Below are positions 1-57,784 of a stretch of 57,784 bases of DNA, piece by piece; position 1 is the stretch's first letter, and the number at the start of each line of letters is the position of its first letter. The DNA is from a virus. Its lineage: Duplodnaviria; Caudoviricetes. The stretch is from the IMG/VR virus record IMGVR_UViG_3300044742_000189, positions 1-57,784 of that record; one strand, 5' to 3'. The notes beneath the pieces are model-generated. The model made no database searches and was not told the DNA's origin. It saw only the letters and a list, made by a program, of their open reading frames with translations. Position numbers and translations under genes: made by a program.

Positions 1-127
1 TCGCCGACGTAGGGGCACCAAGCATTGTACGGGCGCGCACTGTCGTCGTCGTTGTCGACGTATGGCGACAGGCAGTCCATCTCGGGCGGGCAAAGCGAAG
101 TCGGGCCAACCAGCCAATCCCACATCC
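1..127. repeat. Terminal direct repeat (identical to 57658..57784); circular assembly overlap
   Basis: First 127 nt match the last 127 nt; the portal reading frame continues across the junction. Confidence 0.97.
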
Positions 128-968: not shown

Positions 969-1186
969 CAGTCCAACAATCCTCTTTGCTCGGCATCACG
1001 ATGACGCTCGATGACCTCGGATTCCTCCAAGGCGTCGAGGATGACTGCTTCCATCAATCGCTGAGACATGGCGGGATGGGTGGCGATCTTTTCTGCTGCG
1101 AACGCCGCGATCTGTTCCTTGGTGGGCAACCCACGCGACGGATCGCCCTTGAGGGCTTCGCCGAAGAGATCGAGCAGCTTGCTCAT
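968..1186 (-). CDS. Hypothetical protein between TerL and portal
   Basis: 72-aa ORF translationally coupled at both ends (ATGA, TGATG). Confidence 0.7.
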   Translation of the reverse strand: MSKLLDLFGEALKGDPSRGLPTKEQIAAFAAEKIATHPAMSQRLMEAVILDALEESEVIERHRDAEQRGLLD

Positions 1187-1944
1187 GCGACCTTCCAGCC
1201 TTCCCCGTCATCGCCGCCGCTGCCATAGTCAGACCGATGCGGGCGAGGATCCGATCCACCTTCCAAAGCGTACCGCTTCATCATGACGGCGATGCGCGTT
1301 GCCGAGAGAATGTCGTCGGCCAGTTTCACGATCAGGCCGTCCTTGCGGTGATAAAGCCTGAATTCTTCGAGCCACTCATTCAGGTTCGAGAACACCTTGA
1401 GCCGGCCCGTCTGCATTCGCTCCAGCATTTCACTGATGCCGGCCTCGATCCCGAACCCGCCCGCATCGTGCGTTGCGTGCTCTTGCCACATGTTGAGACC
1501 ATGCGTGGCGTACTGGTCCTTGAGTTGCAGGCCGGAACTCTTGTCGTGCTGCAGGCCGTCATGCGGCCAGGCGACTGGTATCCACGCGCCCCATGGCTTG
1601 ATCGCCGCGGCATGAATGGGCGGCGTTGCCTGTCTCTCGCGATAGCAGGCCGTCACATAAATCGTATCGGTGTCCTTGTCCCATGCCAGCCTGGCGGCGC
1701 CGAATGGGTGATCCCAACCAAAGTCAATCCCGATGATCTGCGCCCAGTATTTGGGAATGGGGAACGGGTCGACCTTGATCTTGTCTTCGCTGACCGGGAA
1801 AACGCGACCAGAGCCTAGAACCGGGATACCTTTAGCGCGGGCTTCGCGCTCTGCCTCTGGGTAGCTGGCGACGATCGCGGCCCGTTGCTCTGGGCTGTAG
1901 TGCTCCGCATCATCGATTGTCATGAACGTGACAAAGCGGCTCAC
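1183..1944 (-). CDS. terL: Terminase large subunit, C-terminal (nuclease) part, P22 gp2-like
   Basis: MTIDDAEHY, EREARAKGIP, IIGIDFGWDHPF, PVAWPHDG, EEFRLYHRKDG and DDILSATR motifs; GTG start. Confidence 0.93.
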   Translation of the reverse strand: MSRFVTFMTIDDAEHYSPEQRAAIVASYPEAEREARAKGIPVLGSGRVFPVSEDKIKVDPFPIPKYWAQIIGIDFGWDHPFGAARLAWDKDTDTIYVTACYRERQATPPIHAAAIKPWGAWIPVAWPHDGLQHDKSSGLQLKDQYATHGLNMWQEHATHDAGGFGIEAGISEMLERMQTGRLKVFSNLNEWLEEFRLYHRKDGLIVKLADDILSATRIAVMMKRYALEGGSDPRPHRSDYGSGGDDGEGWKVA

Positions 1945-2028
1945 GTGCTATATAGTCCAGTCACGACGCCCGTCCCGCTATGACCACTGGCTAGATGCTA
2001 GCTCGATGCCGGTGCGAGCGGGCGGGGG

Positions 2029-2796
2029 TCATTTCGTTAACCTCTCCACCATCTGCGGCGTCAGAAACATCCGCACTACTTCCGACATGCCTTGCAGCGG
2101 CGTAAACGTCATGATGGCGAACTGCCCGCGCTGTCCATTGTTGGTTCGGGTCAGCCCCTCGGTGTAAATCTCCAGCGGGGCTTCCTCATCGAACCAAACA
2201 CCATCCACGGTAGGGCCTTGCCACTTCTCGCGGCCCTTCTCGTAGCTCTTAAAGTACAGCAGGCTTTCGCCCTGCTGAACGTCACCACCACCGCCCCATT
2301 TGACAATGGCATTATCAAGAAGCCCAGTGACACCCATGGCTCGAGCAACTTGACCAAGAGCATCCTTGGGGACCATGCCGGTGCCCCACTCCTCAACCTT
2401 TGGGGGTGGGCCAATCAGGATGCGCTGCGGGTTGTCTCGGGTTGATTCCGACGTGACGCCCGACGCCCACAGGATCACGGGCTTGGCGAACGTGGCGCCT
2501 TCCCACCAATCAGGATACCGTCCGGTGAGGTGCATCGCCCATTCAGCCCCACCGGCGACAGTTTTTCCCAATTGGTTACCTGCCATAAAGAGGCGCTGGG
2601 AATTGAGTTCCTTACCGTTGCGGTGGAACTCAAGTTGCTTGCTGTACGGCTTATAGGTTCGCAGCTTATTAGTGGCGAGCCTTCGAGCCGCTTCCTTCTC
2701 GATCTTTGCTATCAATGCCCGCAGCGTCTCCGAGGAGGCTGGCTGCGAGAGCGGCGAGAGCGGCGAGCTGTTCGTCTGTGAACTCTGAAAGCTCAT
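2029..2796 (-). CDS. terL: Terminase large subunit, N-terminal ATPase part
   Basis: Walker A AGNQLGKT, Walker B VWFDEE, coupling motif TFTP. Confidence 0.93.
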   Translation of the reverse strand: MSFQSSQTNSSPLSPLSQPASSETLRALIAKIEKEAARRLATNKLRTYKPYSKQLEFHRNGKELNSQRLFMAGNQLGKTVAGGAEWAMHLTGRYPDWWEGATFAKPVILWASGVTSESTRDNPQRILIGPPPKVEEWGTGMVPKDALGQVARAMGVTGLLDNAIVKWGGGGDVQQGESLLYFKSYEKGREKWQGPTVDGVWFDEEAPLEIYTEGLTRTNNGQRGQFAIMTFTPLQGMSEVVRMFLTPQMVERLTK

Positions 2797-32821: not shown

Positions 32822-33316
32822 TTAGTACGGCGCGTCAGGCAGCACGGGGACGCCACCCTCGCCTATTTTGGGATCCTGAGTGCGCCCAGTGCCGACTGAG
32901 AACCCGACATATCCGGCGTTGCCCCAAGCAGGCAGGGCCTGGCGGTATCGCAAGGCCAATGCTGCGAGGCCCCCATGAAGCAACAGGCCCTGATTGAGGT
33001 ATGCCTTATCGCCAACCAAAGATCTGGGAAGGTACCAAGGAAGATCATAGTTGGGTTGCGCTTTCCCCAATTCGCTCCGAACGGCTTTCTCAAGCTCCGT
33101 TTCACTTTGCGAGGTTGTCTTTTCGCTAGGGACAAAACCAGCCAAGGGGCGCGTGCCGCTCAAAGTAACGCGCGCTTTCGTTCCGAGCCCTAGCGCCAGT
33201 TCAATGGGGTCGGGTGGCCGCATGAGGTCATTCTGAAATAATTGCGCTTGGCGCATGGCCTCATCGTAGGCACCCCGTCCATCATTCCCCATCTTGTTTT
33301 TCCAGTCTTCGGCCAT
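32822..33316 (-). CDS. Small ejection-cluster protein, paralog of 45428..45955
   Basis: AGGAG SD; PNYDLPWYLPRSLVGDKAYLNQGLLLHGGLAA...GNAGYVGFSVGTGRTQDPK. Confidence 0.7.
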   Translation of the reverse strand: MAEDWKNKMGNDGRGAYDEAMRQAQLFQNDLMRPPDPIELALGLGTKARVTLSGTRPLAGFVPSEKTTSQSETELEKAVRSELGKAQPNYDLPWYLPRSLVGDKAYLNQGLLLHGGLAALALRYRQALPAWGNAGYVGFSVGTGRTQDPKIGEGGVPVLPDAPY

Positions 33317-42622: not shown

Positions 42623-42862
42623 TTAGGTATTCGCCACCTGCTCCACGTGCCCGTTGGCATGGATAGCTGGCTTGGGTGCATGGGCAGGCGCGACGGAGGG
42701 CTCCCCAACCCTGGCCTCTAGTTCGCTTATCCTGCGCTGCGCCGCCAGGAGCTGTGCTCGCAAACTAACCCCGTCATTCAAAGCGCCGTTGCGTTGCAAT
42801 TCCATGCCGTCAAGCTGATCCTGGATAGCCTGCTGCATCGCTTGCTTTTCCGGTTCGGTCAT
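42623..42862 (-). CDS. Small coiled-coil protein
   Basis: AAGGAG SD; 79 aa. Confidence 0.65.
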   Translation of the reverse strand: MTEPEKQAMQQAIQDQLDGMELQRNGALNDGVSLRAQLLAAQRRISELEARVGEPSVAPAHAPKPAIHANGHVEQVANT

Positions 42863-42991
42863 AAACCATTCTCCTTGTTGTTTGACCCCATCTACTAAGC
42901 GAGGCTACTCGGAAGTTGTTGTTGGAAGGCCATGACCATTGGCGTGCCCATTTCTGTGGAAACTGCTTAACTGGCTTTCCGGTTTTAGGTG

Positions 42992-43020
42992 TTGACAAGG
43001 CATCTCTCCTCCACTATGTT
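42992..43020 (+). promoter_or_regulatory. IS promoter TTGACA-17-TATGTT
   Basis: Consensus -35 box and 17-nt spacer at the inner IS left end. Confidence 0.75.
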
Positions 43021-43055
43021 GACTCCGGAAGTTGATGTGGAACGGGGAGACGGAT

Positions 43056-43379
43056 ATGCGAGAAGAAAAGCGCACGATGGCTGTCGAGGCCACGATCTAT
43101 ATTTGCGATGATGGGACAGAGTTTGCTCCCACGATAGAGGGCATGGAGCCCGGTAATCTCAAGTGGCGCCAAGACGATGCGAAGTCGAGGGCCGCGCGCC
43201 ACCAGAGCCAAGTTGAGAGGCGAGCAAAACTTACACCGATGCTGGAGAGGCTGTTTGGCGCCAGGGCTGACGAGGTCAAGGCGGCAATGGATGTGCCTGC
43301 GATGCAGTGCCTAGAAAGGCGCTGGCGCGTCCTAGAAACGCTCGACAACCAGTTGGAGAGTCGAAAGCAAGCATCTTGA
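43056..43379 (+). CDS. Passenger ORF of the inner ISL3
   Basis: GGGGAG SD; stop overlaps the probable TTG start of the transposase. Confidence 0.7.
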   Translation: MREEKRTMAVEATIYICDDGTEFAPTIEGMEPGNLKWRQDDAKSRAARHQSQVERRAKLTPMLERLFGARADEVKAAMDVPAMQCLERRWRVLETLDNQLESRKQAS

Positions 43380-44866
43380 ACCACGCCCTCATGCTCGTCG
43401 GCTGGGACGTTACCGAGGTCAAGATCGTCGGTAACGTCCAGGAGGCCACAGCGACCTACGGCCCGGCACTGGAGGAATGTCCCAAATGCGGCGTTGTTGG
43501 GCGCCTCTACCGTCATGGCACCAAGACCGTCGAATACCGGGACGCTCCCGCATTCGGCAAACAATTCGTTATTCGCTGCAAAGTCCAGCGCTTCCGCTGC
43601 CGCGATTGCAATGAGACATCCATGCAACCTCTGCCGGACATGGATACCAACCGGCAGATGACTAAGCGCTGTGTGGCCTATGTCGAGCAGCAGGGCATTC
43701 CGCGCACATTTGCCGAAGTGGCGCGCGACATAGGTGTGGACGAGGCGACAGTCAGAAGCATTTGCACGGCCTACTTCAAATCGAAGATGAAAGGCCACAA
43801 TCACGTCACCGAGGCGCCGGTTGCCCTCGGGATTGACGAATTGATGCTTGATAGGCGCATGCGGGCCATATTCATGGACCTCGGGATTGGTCGCCCCATC
43901 GATATCATCGGCAGCCATAGCAAATGGGAGGTCGCCCGCTGGCTTTCGCAGATGAAGCATCGCGACCGCGTTAAGATCGTCACCATCGACATGACGGGCC
44001 ATTACAAGGATGTGGTTCGAGGCAACCTGCCGAACGCGGTCGTCGTTATCGATAAGTTCCACGTTTTGCGGTACGCCGACGATGCTCTGAAGAAGGTTCG
44101 CGCCAAAGCCCGCAGGAAGGCCGAGGGAGGCACCGGCAAGAATCCGAGACGGAACGTCACCATCCTGCGAAAACGCGCCCACAGGCTCTCCCCGGCGCAG
44201 GAACTGGCCCTTGATGGGATTATCAAGAACGATCCAGTTGTCGGCGCTGCGTATCTCGCCAAGGAGGCGTTTCACAACATCTGGCAAATGACCAACCGCA
44301 TCCAAGCTGAAAAGCTGTTCGCTGATTGGGCTGCCAGCCTCGCGCCCGAAATCAGACGCGAGTTCGGGGTAGTGGCCAGAATGGTGGAGCGCTGGCACGA
44401 GGAGATATTCGCCTATTTCGACTATCGGGCCACGAATGCCGTAACCGAGAACAGAAACGGCTTGATCAAGCACGTCAATCGGTCTGGGCGCGGGTACTCG
44501 TTTGAAATCATCCGCGCCAAGGCTCTTCTCGCTGAGTCGCTGTATTCTGGCCCGATGCGCAAATGCGAGTACTGCAAAGGCGACTATCCAGCGAAGGCTT
44601 TCAGGCGGCTGCCCATCTTTGACAAGGTCTCTATCGATCCGAAAAGCCGAGCGCCCGTGGCGCGCATAATGCGGATCGCCGCCAAGAAACTGCCGGAGAG
44701 TTGCCTGAACTGCCATTATTCGATGTTCACGGTTAGCAAAGGACCGCCGCCCGAGCCCGGTCCAGATAGCGTGGAGATATCGTTTGCCGAAGCCATCTCG
44801 ACTCCATTGCACGCGCTTGTCGCCAAATACGGGACGGACAAATTCCACGGCGGAGGTCCGATGTGA
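43307..44866 (+). CDS. ISL3-family DDE transposase (true start possibly TTG 43376)
   Basis: zf-ISL3 CPKCG...RFRCRDC, HTH, LGIDE, VTIDM, IDKFH, TNAVTENRN; extra C-terminal CEYC...CLNC. Confidence 0.95.
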   Translation: MPRKALARPRNARQPVGESKASILNHALMLVGWDVTEVKIVGNVQEATATYGPALEECPKCGVVGRLYRHGTKTVEYRDAPAFGKQFVIRCKVQRFRCRDCNETSMQPLPDMDTNRQMTKRCVAYVEQQGIPRTFAEVARDIGVDEATVRSICTAYFKSKMKGHNHVTEAPVALGIDELMLDRRMRAIFMDLGIGRPIDIIGSHSKWEVARWLSQMKHRDRVKIVTIDMTGHYKDVVRGNLPNAVVVIDKFHVLRYADDALKKVRAKARRKAEGGTGKNPRRNVTILRKRAHRLSPAQELALDGIIKNDPVVGAAYLAKEAFHNIWQMTNRIQAEKLFADWAASLAPEIRREFGVVARMVERWHEEIFAYFDYRATNAVTENRNGLIKHVNRSGRGYSFEIIRAKALLAESLYSGPMRKCEYCKGDYPAKAFRRLPIFDKVSIDPKSRAPVARIMRIAAKKLPESCLNCHYSMFTVSKGPPPEPGPDSVEISFAEAISTPLHALVAKYGTDKFHGGGPM

Positions 44867-44911
44867 CGAGTGTTCATTTGTTATCAGTTACACCCTCAAT
44901 ACCGGAAAGCC

Positions 44912-45310
44912 GCTTAACTCGCGACACGCTGGACACTTGTTGCTAACGCCAATGCTCTCCCTGCCCGGCACCGGGTAAGAGACTGTTTCGACCGCATCGG
45001 CCTCGAATTGGCCGAGGCACATCTCGCACATCGTGAAGTCTCCCCCGAGATTGCGCATCCGCATGGCCTTGGCGCGGAGGATTGGAAACGTGTACCCGTT
45101 GCCGGCGCCATTGAGTGCCCGGATCAGTTTGTTGCGGTACTCGGTGTAGGCGTTGGTGAAGGGATAGTCGAAGAAATGGAATATCTCCTTGCGCCATTCC
45201 TGGACGGTTGCTGCGGCATCCTCAAACTCCGGGATCGAGGATGCATGCTTGATGCGCCAGTCGTCGAACATACGCTCAGCCTTTCTTTGCGGCGGCTTGT
45301 CGTAAAGCAT
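44912..45310 (-). pseudogene. C-terminal ISL3 transposase fragment of the outer element, interrupted by the inner IS (continues at 42964..42905)
   Basis: WRKEIFHFFDYPFTNAYTEYRNKLIR...GYTFPILRAK; after removing the inner IS the frame reads KCPACRELS-SFHRNGHANGHGLPTTTSE* with TAG inside the IR. Confidence 0.9.
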
Positions 45311-45427
45311 CCCGCATTGGGGCTAACTCTACATGGGCGCGCATCAGTGCGGCGCGTATAATGACGGTTGTTCTATCGTGGCGGCGACTTCGTTTTGGTG
45401 TCGCGGCCACGGTGGTTGGTGGTTTCT

Positions 45428-45955
45428 TCATTTCATGCGATCCAACACATTACGTGTGTCGTGGTCGGCGCTATCCAATTCAAGCAAGGGATTGCGATAG
45501 CCTTCGCCATACCTATTGCTCAGGATCGAGGCTAGATCATTAGCTGGCATCGGGTCGTTGACTTTTGGCTTCGGCGCCGTGCGCCCGCTGCCAATCGTCC
45601 AGGCCACGTACGCAGCATTAGCTAATGCGGTAACCAATCCAAGCCACCCAGGCCCTCCCATTCGGCCGCCGGCAAGTTTGCTTGCCAGCCCATCCAATGC
45701 GGATGCGGCGCCATATGCCGCTATCCCCCCGTGCAGTCCCACACCTTGGTAGCGATACGGTAGATCACCGACGAGCCCTTCCGGCAGATAGTAAGCATGG
45801 TCGCCGTTTGGGCGATAAAAGCCACCTTCGCTTCGCTTCGGGTCCGTTAGTGTAACACCTGGCATGCTGGGCGCGGGAGCTTGATAGCTGCTGCCGTTGC
45901 CGTAATGCTCCTTCAATAGCTGGACCAAGGCATTATGGTCACTGTATTCGGCCAT
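45428..45955 (-). CDS. Cargo gene of the outer ISL3 element; paralog of phage gene 32822..33316
   Basis: GGAG SD; shared PNxD..YLP..LVGD..Y..QG..LHGG.AA and NA.YV...G.GRT..PK motifs. Confidence 0.8.
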   Translation of the reverse strand: MAEYSDHNALVQLLKEHYGNGSSYQAPAPSMPGVTLTDPKRSEGGFYRPNGDHAYYLPEGLVGDLPYRYQGVGLHGGIAAYGAASALDGLASKLAGGRMGGPGWLGLVTALANAAYVAWTIGSGRTAPKPKVNDPMPANDLASILSNRYGEGYRNPLLELDSADHDTRNVLDRMK

Positions 45956-46038
45956 TTCCCCGCTCCGCCCCCAATATCAAGTTCCGAATTTGGCACTACT
46001 CTGGTTTGGCGCTATTCACAAGTGAAATCCGGAGAGCC

Positions 46039-47115
46039 CTAAGCGATTGTGCTAGAAGCCATCCTGATCCAGTTAGTTCCGTCGCTAACCATGATGCACC
46101 ATGCGCCGTCAGTTCCGGGTAAAATTGCAGTTCCGGCACTTGCCGTAGTATTGGGAACAACATTGGACGAGACGGATGTTACAGTCTGTGCTTGTATTGT
46201 CTTCATGTAAATCTCGCGACCTGGCCAAGCCGATGCTGCAGGAAGAGTTACTTGCGTGTCGCTTCCTTTGTTGCATATCACCCAGTTCTCCGTAGCCGCC
46301 AGACTGAAGTCGCCCGTCTTGGTGACGACGTTGCCGCGCGAAAGCGGCCCGCCCAATGTCGCAAGCAGCGTGCTCGCAATGGTTAGGCCGGCGACGGGCG
46401 TGTTCGGCGTTGAGCCCGTGCTGCCCGCAGGCGCCACCTTGAATATGAAGCTGCCGCCTGCTCCAGTCCCTTTCCCAGGCGAGGCGATGAACGTCCAATC
46501 TTTACCAGCTTGATCCGATGAGCCGCCAGTAACGAGTCCCTGAGAGCGGATCGTCTGCGCGACGGCGGCCGCATTGGTATCTGCATCGGCGGCGCCAAGC
46601 TGAAGAGAGGCGGCGCCGCCGCGCGTGATAAAGAGATCCTGCGTATCGCCATAAGAGGACCCACTCGTCCACGCAAGCGCCAGGGCGCTTGTTATCTGCA
46701 TCGCAGCGCTGCTGCGAACGCCAAGCCCAAACGCATTGCTTGAATCCGTGAAGGCTGCGCCAGCGCGAACTATTCCATAACCGGAGACACTAAAATACGA
46801 CGACACGCCCACCAGGCAATCGATATGTTTTGAATTGCCGTCACTTGCCGTGTCCGTAATCGCACTGCTAATAGAAGTAAAGACCGTGGCGCCGTTATTC
46901 CATGTTTGGCTGCTGGTGAGCGGCTTGCTGGTCGTGACGGTGCCGGCCGCAAAGATATTTTGCCCTGTCCACGTATTCGCTAAGCCAAGGATGTAATCCC
47001 TGATTTGGCTGTTGGTGAGATACCCCTTGACGCCGGCCTTCGACGCTGGGATGCGGTCGGTGGCCGACGCAGAAGCATGCGCGCTAGAGCCAGAAATAGT
47101 AACAGCGGTGCTCAT
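46039..47115 (-). CDS. Ser/Thr-rich tail fibre-like virion protein
   Basis: Beta-rich; C-terminal VTKTGDF...VTLPAAS..PGR...VSDGTNW domain; stop codon lies in the TSD. Confidence 0.7.
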   Translation of the reverse strand: MSTAVTISGSSAHASASATDRIPASKAGVKGYLTNSQIRDYILGLANTWTGQNIFAAGTVTTSKPLTSSQTWNNGATVFTSISSAITDTASDGNSKHIDCLVGVSSYFSVSGYGIVRAGAAFTDSSNAFGLGVRSSAAMQITSALALAWTSGSSYGDTQDLFITRGGAASLQLGAADADTNAAAVAQTIRSQGLVTGGSSDQAGKDWTFIASPGKGTGAGGSFIFKVAPAGSTGSTPNTPVAGLTIASTLLATLGGPLSRGNVVTKTGDFSLAATENWVICNKGSDTQVTLPAASAWPGREIYMKTIQAQTVTSVSSNVVPNTTASAGTAILPGTDGAWCIMVSDGTNWIRMASSTIA

Positions 47116-47779: not shown

Positions 47780-48535
47780 TTAGGAAACCTTGCGCCAGTT
47801 GAATGTGATCGTGCCGGTGAAGGTCACAGCGCCTGCCGCGTCCACGTTGGCCCAGCCATCAGCTACGTTCAGAAACAAATCGTGCGACAGTCCGCCGGTG
47901 GTCTTGATCCAAACGCCCATGGTGCTGGCCGCCAGCATGCCCTTTAACACGAAGGTATCGCCCGCGACGTTCGGCAGAATCGCGGTGCCGCCTACGACGC
48001 CGCCGGCCGCACCGCCGTCGATATAGTCCTCCATGGTGGTGGACAGCGTTGTGACGGCGCCCGTTCCAACGGTGGAACCGACACCATACTCTGGTGTATC
48101 GGTCGTGACAGAGATTGCGGCGGTGAACTTGCCAAAAATCACCATATCCTTGACCACGATATCGCCGGCCGGAAAGGTGTAGAACTTCGCGCCAATCGCA
48201 AGGTTAGAACTGTCGCCGGACGTGCCGATCGCGAATGCGGTCATAGTTAGTTTGGTGAAGTGGTCGACATCGCTGCCGGATTCTAGGGCTGCCGTGGTTG
48301 CCGAGGTGGTGACGGTCCCAGCGGTGCCGTCTGGCAACCAGGCGCTTCCACTGTAGACGTTAATCAGGCCCGTCGTGGTGTTGTAGATGGCATCGCCAGC
48401 CTTAGCACCACCCGATCCCGTCAGCGCGTCCCGCTGCGTGGTCGTCAGGTTGTTGAGGCGCAAACCCGGGTGGTCTGTGCCCTCAAACTGGTGACGCTTA
48501 CTCCAGACGATCGGGATATCACGATGCACGGACAT
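47780..48535 (-). CDS. Thr-rich virion/decoration-like protein
   Basis: LTTTQRDAL...GDAIYNTTT...YSGSAW repeat seen in phage fibres. Confidence 0.65.
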
Positions 48536-49535
48536 GGGTTGTCCTTTCAGAAGGTTGATGACTCATGTCCGCACGGGCCTTTCCATTCGGCCGCACCGAT
48601 TTCATTAGGATCGTCTCGAAGTATGCAATCGTCGCCGTCAGGCCGTCGCGCAATGGCACGGTCGGCCGCCAGCCCAGCTCCGTCTTGGCGAGCGCGATGT
48701 CGGGCTGGCGCTGGCGCGGGTCATCTTGCGGCAGCGGCAGATACACGAGCTTCGATTTCGATCCCGTAAGCTCGATCACGAGTTCAGCAAGGTCATTCAT
48801 GGAGAACTCAGAGGGATTGCCGAGGTTGACCGGCCCAGTGAATCCGTCCGAGTTCTCCATGAGTCGAACCAGACCGCGCACCAAGTCATCGACGTAGCAG
48901 AACGATCGCGTCTGGCTGCCGTCGCCGTAGATGGTGATCGGCTTACCCTTTAGGGCCTGCACGATGAAGTTCGACACCACGCGCCCATCGTTTGGGTGCA
49001 TGCGCGGGCCGTAGGTATTGAAGATGCGTGCGACCTTGATATCTAGGTGATGCTGGCGACGGTAATCGAAGAACAGAGTCTCGGCGCAGCGCTTGCCCTC
49101 GTCGTAGCAGGCCCGCGGCCCCACAGGGTTGACGTTGCCCCAGTAGTCCTCGCGCTGCGGATGCTGGCTTGGATCGCCGTAGACCTCACTCGTTGAGGCT
49201 TGCAGAATGCGACACTTGAGGCGCTTGGCGAGACCCAGCATGTTGATGGCGCCATGCACGCTGGTTTTCGTCGTCTGCACAGGATCGCGCTGATAGTGAA
49301 CTGGCGAGGCTGGGCACGCCAGGTTGTAGATTTCGTCGACCTCTACATACAGAGGAAGCGTCACATCATGGCGCAACAACTCAAAGCGCGGATGGCCAAT
49401 GCGATGCTCGACGTTACGCTTGTTGCCCGTGACGAAATTGTCTAAGCACAGCACCCCATGACCGGCCTCGAGCAGGCGGTCACACAGATGCGAGCCGAGA
49501 AACCCGGCGCCGCCGGTCACCAGGATGGATTTCAA
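48519..49535 (-). CDS. uxs: UDP-glucuronate decarboxylase (UDP-xylose synthase), extended SDR
   Basis: [63 protein letters not shown]; TTG start coupled to the GT stop. Confidence 0.93.
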
Positions 49536-50632
49536 TTCAGGTACTCCGCCCATTGGCGAGCTCGGATCGCCCATGTGTGATGCCGGTTCATATGAACTGC
49601 CTGGGCATAGAGCGCAGCGGCATCGGTCTCGATGGAATAAGGGCGGTCAACGATGGCGCGCGTGTAGTCCCGCACATATTTTGGTTCGTCCTTGAAATCG
49701 ATAGGCACGAGATCGGCAAAGCCCTCAGTCGTTTCCGGGAGCGCGGCGAAATCACTCGTCACCACACGCATTCCCGCGGCCATTGCTTCCATCACAGCTA
49801 TGCAGCTCGTTTCCGGGAATATGTTGGGATAGGCGAGGATGTGCGCGTGCGCGAGGCGTTCGGCGAGAGCCGGCTGAGGCAGGGAGCCGACGTACTCCAC
49901 GCCATCAGTGGACCTCAGGGCGTCGTACATGCCGCTGAACATTTCCGCGTCGAAAACCTCGTGCTTCCGATAGACAGCCATGCTCGAGAAGACGCTTAGC
50001 TTGGCTTCCGGGTTGCTTCGTCGGTACTCCGGGAAGATGTCGAGCAGATGCTTCAAGCCGCGGTATGGCGTGCTGGTATAAGCCAGCGTCAACGGGTTGG
50101 ACTTAGCCCTGACCAGATCATCAGGCGAACGGAACAACCCCTCGAAAGACGGCGCGATCGCATTGCGGATGGTGGTCAGCCGATCAGGGGCGAGACCGAA
50201 CGTCTCGATGTAAGAGTTGCGCTGCCAATCCGACACGCAAACGATGCCATCCCAATTCTCGCTGATCTCCTTGACGGCCAGCCTGCACATCGCCGGCTGC
50301 ACCGTCTCGTGCTGCGTCCACAGGATCAGCTTCGTCGATGGCGGCAGATCGGAGCGCCGCTTGCTACCGCTCGACGAGTTGAGGACGATAACAGCGTCGA
50401 ACTTGCGCTCGCGAAAGAATGCACCACTGCAAAGGCGGGCGTTGATGCACTCGACCCCGGATACTATGGCCGGGCGCTTCGTGCCGGACATAACCGTGAC
50501 TGTGTGCCCCACCTTGGCAAGCGCCACCGCGAGGTAACACAGCGCCGACTGAGACCCGCCGAGCGGCCCGACCGTAGGCGCATCGACGTTGTAGTCCCAG
50601 TCCGTGAGATCAACGAAGCAGAGGCGCATCAC
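49532..50632 (-). CDS. GT-B glycosyltransferase (GT4-like)
   Basis: [39 protein letters not shown]. Confidence 0.9.
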
Positions 50633-56459: not shown

Positions 56460-57784
56460 TCAAACCCCACCCGGAGGCAGCGGAAGCCCGCCCGCCTGAT
56501 TTATCTGCGGTTCCTCGCCGGGAACCCAAGGCGTAGACGATTGCTCCAGGAAATCCTGCTGCGGTGCTTCGGCGCCCGGAGGCATGGCACCCTGACCAGG
56601 TGGGCCGCCGAGCGCGTTGGGTGGTGGTGGACCCGGCTGGCCTGGAGGAGCGCCGGGTCCACCCGCAAGCCCATTCATCCCTGGGGGTGGGCCACCCGAG
56701 ACGTGCTGGGCCTGGTCGAGAAATGATGGCTCGCGGTGAAAGAACGGGAAGACCTCGCCGATCTGCGGCAGCATCTGGGGCGGCATGCCAATACCCGCGG
56801 CCGCAACGAACGCGTCGGTGTGAACCTTATCCGTATCCGCCCGCGTCTTGTCGATGTCGGCCGCCTTTTGTAGCTCCTCGAGCTGGGCCATCCGCTTTTG
56901 CAGCTCGATCATCTCGGGCGGGGGCGCCTTGAATTGCTGCAGCTTCTGTAGCAGTGCGTCCTTGTCAGGGAGATTGGACAATTCAATCAGCACCTCTGAC
57001 GGGATGTCGGGTCGGTCGGATAGCTGCTCGATCAGCTCCTCTCGCATCGTGACGGTGTCCGGGCCCTCGTCGAGAATGATATCAACGTCCATCTCGGCGA
57101 TCTGGTTCTCGACGCCCGTGACATTGCCCATGCCGTCCGCGATAGGGACGTTGATGCGTAGATGCTGGTTGGCCTGGGCGTTGCCCGTCAGGCGGATGTA
57201 CCTGTCGTCGGTGTAGAACTTGCGGGCGTTATTCCAGTCCATGTGATAGCCGCTCAGCTTCCACTCGCGCATGCGCTCGTAAACGGGCGACAGTTCCGCC
57301 ATGCCGGAGTTTTGCTGGGCGAGGATGGCGCGGCCGGACTGCTGTTCAACCCCCTTGCCTTGAAGTGCAGGATTGGGGCCGGTGTTGTTGAGGTCCGCCT
57401 TGGCGTCCTGCATCATCTCCAGGTTTCCCTGGATCTGCGCAGTCTGCTCCAATGGCTCAAACAAGAATCCCTTGTTGACTTTGATGATGCCGTCCGGCTT
57501 GGCGAGCTCGCGCCTCGCTTCCTCGATATCGGCAACAGCCCCCGCCTCATACTTGACTTGGCGGACGGACAGTAGGTGCAGGGCCTTGGATGCCCGCTTG
57601 TTCACCTCATCTTGGAGGGAGCGAAGATCGCGCACCATACCGTAGCGCGTGCCGTCCTCGCCGACGTAGGGGCACCAAGCATTGTACGGGCGCGCACTGT
57701 CGTCGTCGTTGTCGACGTATGGCGACAGGCAGTCCATCTCGGGCGGGCAAAGCGAAGTCGGGCCAACCAGCCAATCCCACATCC
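56460..57784 (-). CDS. Portal protein, 3' part
   Basis: RYGMVRDLRSLQDEVNKRASK, QSGRAILAQQ and DVDIILDEGP motifs of P22-like portals; Pro/Gly-rich tail. Confidence 0.9.
   Translation of the reverse strand, partial: MWDWLVGPTSLCPPEMDCLSPYVDNDDDSARPYNAWCPYVGEDGTRYGMVRDLRSLQDEVNKRASKALHLLSVRQVKYEAGAVADIEEARRELAKPDGIIKVNKGFLFEPLEQTAQIQGNLEMMQDAKADLNNTGPNPALQGKGVEQQSGRAILAQQNSGMAELSPVYERMREWKLSGYHMDWNNARKFYTDDRYIRLTGNAQANQHLRINVPIADGMGNVTGVENQIAEMDVDIILDEGPDTVTMREELIEQLSDRPDIPSEVLIELSNLPDKDALLQKLQQFKAPPPEMIELQKRMAQLEELQKAADIDKTRADTDKVHTDAFVAAAGIGMPPQMLPQIGEVFPFFHREPSFLDQAQHVSGGPPPGMNGLAGGPGAPPGQPGPPPPNALGGPPGQGAMPPGAEAPQQDFLEQSSTPWVPGEEPQINQAGGLPLPPGGV
57658..57784. repeat. Terminal direct repeat, second copy
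   Basis: Identical to 1..127. Confidence 0.97.

Follow-up and report, generated by a model that had tools for sequence, protein, structure and literature searches.

Two nested ISL3 elements in the structural operon of a temperate soil phage, the outer one a transposase-defective shell around a phage late-type gene

How does a gene of phage late-region type come to lie between the ends of an insertion sequence (IS), inside the structural operon of a phage and without any gene having been broken? The question is raised by the insert at 42903..46038 of the virus record IMGVR_UViG_3300044742_000189 (Duplodnaviria; Caudoviricetes), all 57,784 nucleotides of which form the window analyzed here. An earlier note, made from the bare sequence, had read the insert as one non-autonomous ISL3 element carrying a paralog of a gene resident in the same phage, and had overlooked the intact IS within it. 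The insert is in fact made up of two nested ISL3 elements, an intact inner one (IS-A) and a defective outer one (IS-B). The reading that we favor, at a probability of roughly three in four, is that IS-B is a cargo shell holding a phage late gene in the cargo slot of its lineage and that IS-A inserted into it later.

The outer boundaries were found again as first described. Both ends of the insert begin with GGCT, a perfect 8-bp duplication (CTAAGCGA) flanks it, and the two ends are alike (score of 6 versus −11.1 ± 4.4 in shuffles, reached by 2 of 2,000). Insertion at a stop codon was also borne out: the 358-aa gene ends in a stop codon that is part of the right copy of the duplication, and the neighbor on the other side, 42623..42862, is whole, so that no phage gene is broken. 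Within these limits, a pair of inverted repeats at 42967-42986 and 44898-44917 led to IS-A, which has its own perfect 8-bp duplication (GCTTAACT) and a complete transposase, and the segment as a whole therefore does contain an intact transposase gene. The label of non-autonomous ISL3 element thus holds for the outer shell, not for the 42903..46038 segment as a single element. The defective, cargo-bearing part is this shell only (42903..42972 plus 44920..46038, ~1,189 bp), that is, the insert minus IS-A and minus one copy of the IS-A duplication. A pattern for ISL3 ends matched three sites in the window, both tips of IS-A and the proximal tip of IS-B, with 0.09 expected by chance and none of 100 shuffles reaching three. 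Both target duplications share GCTTA (GCTTAACT; TCGCTTAG on the other strand), which may reflect a common target preference or chance.

Members of the ISL3 family are defined (ISfinder) by terminal inverted repeats starting with GG and an 8-bp target duplication. IS-A, which lies on the strand opposite to the outer element, has both inverted repeats starting with GGCTTTCCGGT, and its left and right ends match with a score of 6 that no shuffle reached (−13.2 ± 4.9; 0 of 2,000). Its transposase, mechanically called as an open reading frame (ORF) from a GTG at 43307 and with its likely start at ATG 43388, has all three Pfam domains DDE_Tnp_ISL3, Zn_ribbon_ISL3, and HTH_Tnp_ISL3 (PF01610, E 2.5e-51; PF14690, E 3.9e-10; PF13542, E 1.3e-6) and scores 270.3 bits against NF033550 (cut-off, 180). 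By transposase domains, GG-starting repeats, and 8-bp duplication alike, IS-A is an ISL3 element. A promoter-like TTGACA-17-TATGTT at 42992..43020 precedes its first ORF, a 107-aa frame for which Pfam, PHROGs, NCBIfam, and PADLOC offered no family and plasmids no match. The transposase is less than 60% identical to all 2,965 matching plasmid records, the 15 matches listed spanning 34.7 to 38.8%.

On the minus strand, IS-B begins with an 83-nt left end, followed by a 175-aa gene (the cargo), a 117-nt spacer, and a transposase remnant. It has ISL3-type ends, as judged by the end comparisons, and CTAAGCGA on both sides. It has no functional transposase: what it retains is a C-terminal fragment (about the last 150 codons), with three in-frame stops upstream and IS-A interrupting it. 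This fragment corresponds to positions 160-233 of 240 of the DDE_Tnp_ISL3 profile alone (E 2.8e-10) and is 41% identical to the IS-A transposase over residues 333-453 of the latter. According to the coordinates, its frame resumes in phase beyond IS-A for 21 further codons, as the end of ORF 42905..43093, until the terminal repeat supplies the stop codon, a TAG at 42907..42905; hence the genuine 3′ end of IS-B is formed by the 70 bases to the left of IS-A. The deletion runs from the end of the slot, the space between left end and transposase gene, to about codon 330 of the transposase. Having lost the first two thirds of its transposase, IS-B is unable to transpose unaided and ranks as a non-autonomous derivative of ISL3 and not as an autonomous member of the family; with IS ends around a passenger gene and no working transposase, it has the make-up of a mobile insertion cassette. 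A further ORF of 51 codons starts in the spacer (45311..45427), where its start overlaps the stop codon of the cargo gene as ATGA.

The left ends of the two elements are homologous. Over the first 86 nt they align with a score of 13, compared with −13.0 ± 4.8 in shuffles (0 of 2,000 reach it), and both comprise a terminal repeat, a second repeat-like copy some 50 to 70 nt in, and a GGAG-type ribosome-binding site (RBS), followed in each by the ATG of the first ORF at element position 84. The 175-aa gene therefore occupies the canonical cargo slot. It had first been placed where the 5′ portion of the transposase gene should be; that portion is indeed gone, and the position of the gene is the cargo slot of the lineage.

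This slot recurs among relatives of IS-A. Its transposase has 161 related proteins at an E value of ≤1e-20 among 8,000 candidates scored (best, 81% identity), and a profile of 30 relatives run on viral contigs matched 106 stretches, of which 80 loci were kept. Of these loci, 43 yielded an element delimited by GG-starting inverted repeats with at least 15 of 22 positions matching plus an 8-bp duplication with at least 7 of 8, and the duplication was perfect in 42. In every one of the 43, a slot of 417 to 2,971 bp (median, 840; 415 bp in IS-A) separates the left tip from the start of the transposase and contains at least one co-oriented ORF of at least 60 aa. The first possible start lies 30 to 100 nt from the tip in 18 of the 43 and 30 to 200 nt from it in 38; in the left ends of 13 relatives inspected by eye, the start codon follows the subterminal repeat at ~74 to 85 nt in most. 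The content of the slot is very diverse, with 76 non-overlapping ORFs falling into 68 clusters and families that include DNA methyltransferases, PAPS-reductase-like, Lar-like, queuine-tRNA-ribosyltransferase-like, YopX, NikA-like, and helix-turn-helix (HTH) proteins. The lineage is one that carries variable, co-oriented cargo between its left end and its transposase. In the literature, at the level of titles and abstract openings, a phage-borne ISL3 lineage with a cargo slot was not found described. The largest cargo load seen was in a 4.4-kb delimited element (L115, 491..4910), with several ORFs in a 2,971-bp slot. The features of the insert are listed in Table 1.

Table 1. Features of the nested insert, with the resident homolog of the cargo gene
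Feature	Position	Strand	Sequence, basis, or remark
IS-B target duplication, left copy	42895..42902	.	CTAAGCGA
IS-B distal end, right inverted repeat (IRR), tip GGCTACTCGG	42903..42972	-	End comparison; frame continuity from coordinates
IS-A target duplication, left copy	42965-42972		GCTTAACT; last 8 bases of IS-B distal piece
IS-A, intact 1,939-bp ISL3 element nested in IS-B	42973..44911	+	Tips GGCTTTCCGGT
IS-A slot ORF, 107 aa	43056..43379	+	ATG at element position 84
IS-A transposase	43388..44866	+	Pfam domains, NF033550
IS-A target duplication, right copy	44912..44919	.	GCTTAACT
IS-B transposase remnant, C-terminal part, cut by IS-A near its 3′ end	44920..45310	-	DDE_Tnp_ISL3
Spacer, cargo to transposase remnant	45311..45427	-	117 nt
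Cargo gene, 175 aa	45428..45955	-	ATG at IS-B position 84
IS-B proximal end, tip GGCTCTCCGGATTT, subterminal repeat copy, RBS-like GGAG	45956..46038	-	Like IS-A left end
IS-B target duplication, right copy	46039..46046	.	CTAAGCGA; holds TAG of 358-aa gene 46039..47115
Resident 164-aa family member	32822..33316	-	Between 798-aa and 520-aa late genes

The cargo gene is an intact ORF in the same direction as the late genes, as had been noted from the sequence, and its proposed relationship to the resident gene of the phage stood up to alignment. In BLASTP the two products gave 33.9 bits and an E value of 3e-7, with 36 of 94 positions identical. By profile, the window holds exactly two members of the family (E 3.2e-44 and 8.5e-42); both were rows of the profile, and the independent test is therefore the pairwise BLASTP. 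Of 287 candidates in a word-indexed search, four passed E ≤1e-3, one being the cargo and the others 73% (two proteins) and 47% identical to it, and a profile search of 1.84 billion cluster representatives returned 25 at E ≤1e-3, 15 of them at E ≤1e-10, with the resident protein, itself a row of the search profile, among the matches. Two members, P0002 and P0004, are encoded on contigs of 7,077 and 1,167 bp; the latter length is near the ~1,189 bp of IS-B, which is no more than a lead. In an alignment of 27 sequences, G63, Y67, Q70, G71, and H75 are invariant and D52, R68, N113, Y116, G124, and R125 nearly so; the core common to cargo and resident protein reads D-x-P-W/Y-Y-L-P ... G-D-x-x-Y-R-Y-Q-G ... 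H-G ... N-x-x-Y ... G-R. On sequence grounds, the two proteins are assigned to one small, unnamed family of phage late genes. Neither window copy matched a family in Pfam, PHROGs, NCBIfam, or PADLOC, and for the cargo no match was obtained in plasmid or phage collections, viral contigs, or representative genomes, nor at 0.9 or above in the ESM Atlas.

The relatives of the cargo point to where it may have come from. A 6.9-kb metagenome contig (L004) carries a 73% homolog between a GH19-type endolysin and a spanin-like overlapping ORF pair (transmembrane and lipobox proteins, by eye), in a tightly packed array of genes with no IS tips around it. The DNA similarity between IS-B and this contig, 69%, ends exactly at both stop codons, with none outside the ORF. 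Over 156 codons, the cargo and the L004 homolog differ by a pN of 0.20 and a pS of 0.78 (nonsynonymous and synonymous divergence, respectively), which indicates purifying selection. That the cargo is closer to the gene of this other phage (73%) than to the resident copy (38%) fits capture and transfer rather than local duplication. No similarity was seen between the 79-aa gene next to the insert and the ORF that precedes the endolysin in L004.

ART-PolyVal is a module of injected polyvalent phage proteins. In a viral contig (L047, 6948..8309) the family core forms the C-terminal part of a 453-aa protein whose middle resembles ART-PolyVal (PF18760; E 1.4e-6, 29.5 bits, under the Pfam cut-off of 31.2), and the gene that follows encodes a phage lysozyme; in L004 an ART-PolyVal protein is encoded two genes further on from the homolog. 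Gene order, by comparison with P22, and the ART-PolyVal-like fusions make the ejection-region label of the earlier note a reasonable inference, and packaging of the cargo protein in the virion may be supposed from the same observations. The family was absent from three capsid-related phage records (49 to 93% complete) and is therefore accessory. A C-terminal motif of the cargo subfamily (cargo residues ~137-175, ...DSADYDTRNV...) recurs at the N termini of other late proteins, among them the 453-aa ART-PolyVal-like fusion of L047 (proteins P0019 and P0028 are also concerned), which suggests a shuffling of small modules among late proteins.

An AlphaFold2 model of the cargo built from the 27-row alignment (mean predicted local distance difference test [pLDDT], 71; predicted template modeling score [pTM], 0.52) has as its confident core a two-helix hairpin, residues 70-94 and 101-123. 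Foldseek returned nothing at E ≤0.001 for this model among viral models or in the PDB, and the weak rows, mostly membrane helical hairpins, are not evidence. Averaged over 19 residues, Kyte-Doolittle hydropathy peaks at 1.29 in the cargo and at 0.91 in the resident protein, the usual threshold for a transmembrane segment being ~1.6; a holin or lysis membrane protein was accordingly rejected for the cargo, despite the lysis genes that neighbor its relatives. Tentatively, the cargo might serve late, possibly delivered, proteins as a helical-hairpin accessory or anchoring module.

The genome that hosts the insert is that of a temperate, podovirus-like, GC-rich soil phage. Its minus-strand late genes include those for portal, major head protein, an Hc3-like head-closure protein, a pectate-lyase-type tailspike, and an endolysin-like protein, and it encodes an integrase together with RecT-like annealing and Gam-like proteins, from which we conclude that it is temperate. 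The insert is located in the spacer between the tail-fiber-like 358-aa gene and the 79-aa gene preceding the tailspike; GC content does not mark it (0.57 versus 0.59). No terminator-like site was seen on the minus strand within the insert, so that late-operon transcription could plausibly read through into the tailspike gene. The record has direct terminal repeats and is rated 100% complete. Because 127 is a common assembler word size, a repeat of that length would imply circular assembly; the repeat here is exactly 127 bases (1..127 and 57658..57784), which fits an overlap from circular assembly rather than a physical terminal repeat.

These observations can be brought together as follows. 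IS-B belongs to a phage-borne ISL3 lineage whose members reserve room for cargo directly behind the left end and ahead of the transposase gene, in the order terminal repeat, subterminal copy, RBS, and start codon, the last lying ~74 to 85 nt from the tip in the closer relatives. This slot would have taken up the 175-aa gene, probably captured from an L004-like phage, and the loss of the first two thirds of the transposase would have left a shell resembling a mobile insertion cassette. The cargo would then have reached the present phage by transposition of IS-B, probably during the prophage state and perhaps with mobilization in trans by a cognate transposase; between the IS-A transposase and the remnant, identity is no more than 41%, and the two elements differ in their tips. 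IS-A, an intact member of the same lineage with other cargo, would have inserted later into the 3′ end of the IS-B remnant. Read-through from the co-oriented operon and the built-in start region may together provide late expression of the cargo, whose product is perhaps a helical-hairpin accessory of an ejection/lysis gene neighborhood. That the whole phage-adapted branch of ISL3 works as a gene-cassette exchange system among phages, with a fixed expression slot (subterminal repeat, RBS, and a start codon ~80 nt from the tip) open to almost any gene of a phage and with transposase-less shells moved in trans, is a wider proposal that we regard as doubtful.

Several results weigh against the favored reading. 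A second copy of IS-B or IS-A was not found in viral contigs, species-representative genomes, or plasmids: against plasmids, IS-B DNA gave one 77-nt ISL3 match alone and IS-A DNA none, exact peptide words of the IS-A transposase found nothing in representative genomes or viral contigs, and the 22-nt tip of IS-B found nothing in viral contigs. Nor did a search for longer relatives of the remnant recover a full-length parent of IS-B, the best match being 49% identical. The empty site that the earlier note had proposed to look for in related phages was not found either; the two closest phages (major capsid, 78 to 79% identical) have other tail-fiber modules here, the flanking 358-aa protein has no relative in viral contigs and only partial matches in four phage-collection records, and the mapped contigs show no empty joint, though contigs cannot show absence. 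As for the elements themselves, the distal tip of IS-B is divergent, with four mismatches to the end pattern by eye, and the right junction of the cargo falls within the transposase gene and away from the normal right border of the slot, so that at least one non-standard event is needed. The slot counts refer to the 43 delimited elements, the other 37 of the 80 loci having been dropped (several were cut by the end of the locus), and the slot ORFs are mechanical calls, some small ones of which may be no genes. None of the 76 slot ORFs of the relatives belongs to the cargo family or resembles the ORF of IS-A. The recurrence of the family between ISL3 repeats elsewhere, also looked for at the suggestion of the earlier note, was thus not seen, and its IS-borne spread, and with it the shuttle idea, rests on one case.

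Part of this evidence would suit a history in which IS-B landed as an ordinary ISL3 element, full length or truncated, and the cargo recombined in later, in this phage, from a co-infecting phage or a resident prophage, never having travelled by transposition. No second cargo-bearing IS-B was found in the searches, the right junction inside the transposase gene is irregular, and the RecT-like and Gam-like proteins make recombination available. In such a history, however, the start of the cargo at the same position 84 as the slot ORF of IS-A, right after the conserved subterminal repeat, would be a coincidence if entry was random, and no homology to the donor-type phage extends outside the ORF; we hold it to be improbable. 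Differing from the favored reading in the order of events alone, IS-A may instead have entered IS-B elsewhere, e.g., in a host chromosome, and the 3.1-kb composite then have moved into the phage on the ends of IS-B. One clean duplication around the composite and an independent sample in which the nested left junction recurs agree with this order, which is possible and which we nevertheless doubt: it needs a transposase for the IS-B ends, and the divergence of the IS-A transposase and tips noted above speaks against IS-A as its source. A phage copy with IS-B alone was not seen, but none without IS-B was seen either.

Two simpler accounts fare far worse. To take the whole 3,136-bp segment as one non-autonomous ISL3 element agrees with the outer GGCT ends and their perfect duplication and yet leaves unexplained the better inner inverted repeats, their own perfect duplication, the complete transposase read from the opposite strand, and the IS-B transposase frame that resumes in phase past the inner element; this is very unlikely, and the inner duplication suffices to refute it. 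Misjoining of host IS sequences into a phage contig would be a natural suspicion, ISs being repeats that are often misassembled, but it is scarcely credible here. In a sequencing run that is possibly the source of this DNA (X1), a 21,063-base contig covers 41500..47500 at even depth, and another sample (X3) yielded a 441-bp contig that matches 42805..43245 without differences and crosses the phage/IS-B and IS-B/IS-A junctions, two of the four; two nested perfect target duplications are moreover unexpected from chimeras. Two further samples yielded pieces of flank and IS that are mostly identical, a few short ones carrying 2 to 6 differences, and none of these pieces bridges the right junction.

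The favored reading, of a cargo shell later entered by an intact relative, touches on several known systems. ISPpu12 and ISPst2 are ISL3-family examples of transporter ISs (tIS). Like these, IS-A has an intact transposase and a passenger ORF within the inverted repeats of an ISL3 element and makes an 8-bp duplication; unlike in these, its passenger precedes the transposase, in a slot whose start position is conserved, and its lineage was found in viral contigs and bears phage-type cargo, plasmid transposase matches all being less than 60% identical. Mobile insertion cassettes (MICs) are transposase-less cassettes with IS ends, such as MIC231 from IS231. IS-B shares with them the IS-type ends around a passenger, the lack of a working transposase, and presumably the use of a transposase in trans, and differs in being derived from ISL3, in keeping a 3′ transposase remnant, and in lying in a phage late operon with a phage late-region gene as cargo. 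The likeness to polyvalent proteins lies in the fusion of the family core to an ART-PolyVal-like domain in L047 and in the nearby ART-PolyVal gene in L004, whereas the cargo and resident proteins stand alone, with no enzymatic domain. The concept of tIS, as outlined in PMC9330008, is that of passenger-carrying ISs. In phages, ISs are summarized as rare and poorly tolerated, as occurring mostly in temperate phages, and as associated with mosaicism (PMC3429520; PMC8136500, on 347 phages). The phage studied here agrees in being temperate, with an integrase, and in carrying ISs; what differs is that two are nested in a structural operon with no gene broken and that one of the two carries a phage gene as cargo. 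Passenger ISs and transposase-less cassettes are thus already known, and what is added here is an ISL3-derived shell, its late-gene cargo, and its nesting with an intact relative.

Despite the reported rarity of such insertions, the two ISs sit nested in the structural operon of a phage whose genome was assembled complete. Should the cargo move between phages, this would offer a testable route to phage mosaicism beyond homologous and illegitimate recombination, with the elements as a source of ready-made expression cassettes. If the exchange system were real, the proteins carried into structural operons would include late, possibly virion-delivered ones, beyond anti-restriction genes, and the lineage would extend to GC-rich soil phages. 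The analysis also defines a small unnamed phage family with a predicted helical-hairpin core, sometimes in ART-PolyVal-like fusions, near genes of lysis or ejection type.

Two further observations concern other parts of the genome. Between the head and tail-fiber genes, at 48519..50632 on the minus strand, the structural operon includes glycosyltransferase-like and nucleotide-sugar epimerase-like genes. The large terminase is encoded in two minus-strand ORFs, 2029..2796 and 1183..1944, in the same frame; the two halves (1183..2796) are ~110 nt apart in the window, with three stop codons in the gap, and those of the two closest phages (L005 and L006) are 38 nt apart and in different frames. The arrangement suggests a split that is conserved, a site of recoding, or a small intervening element.

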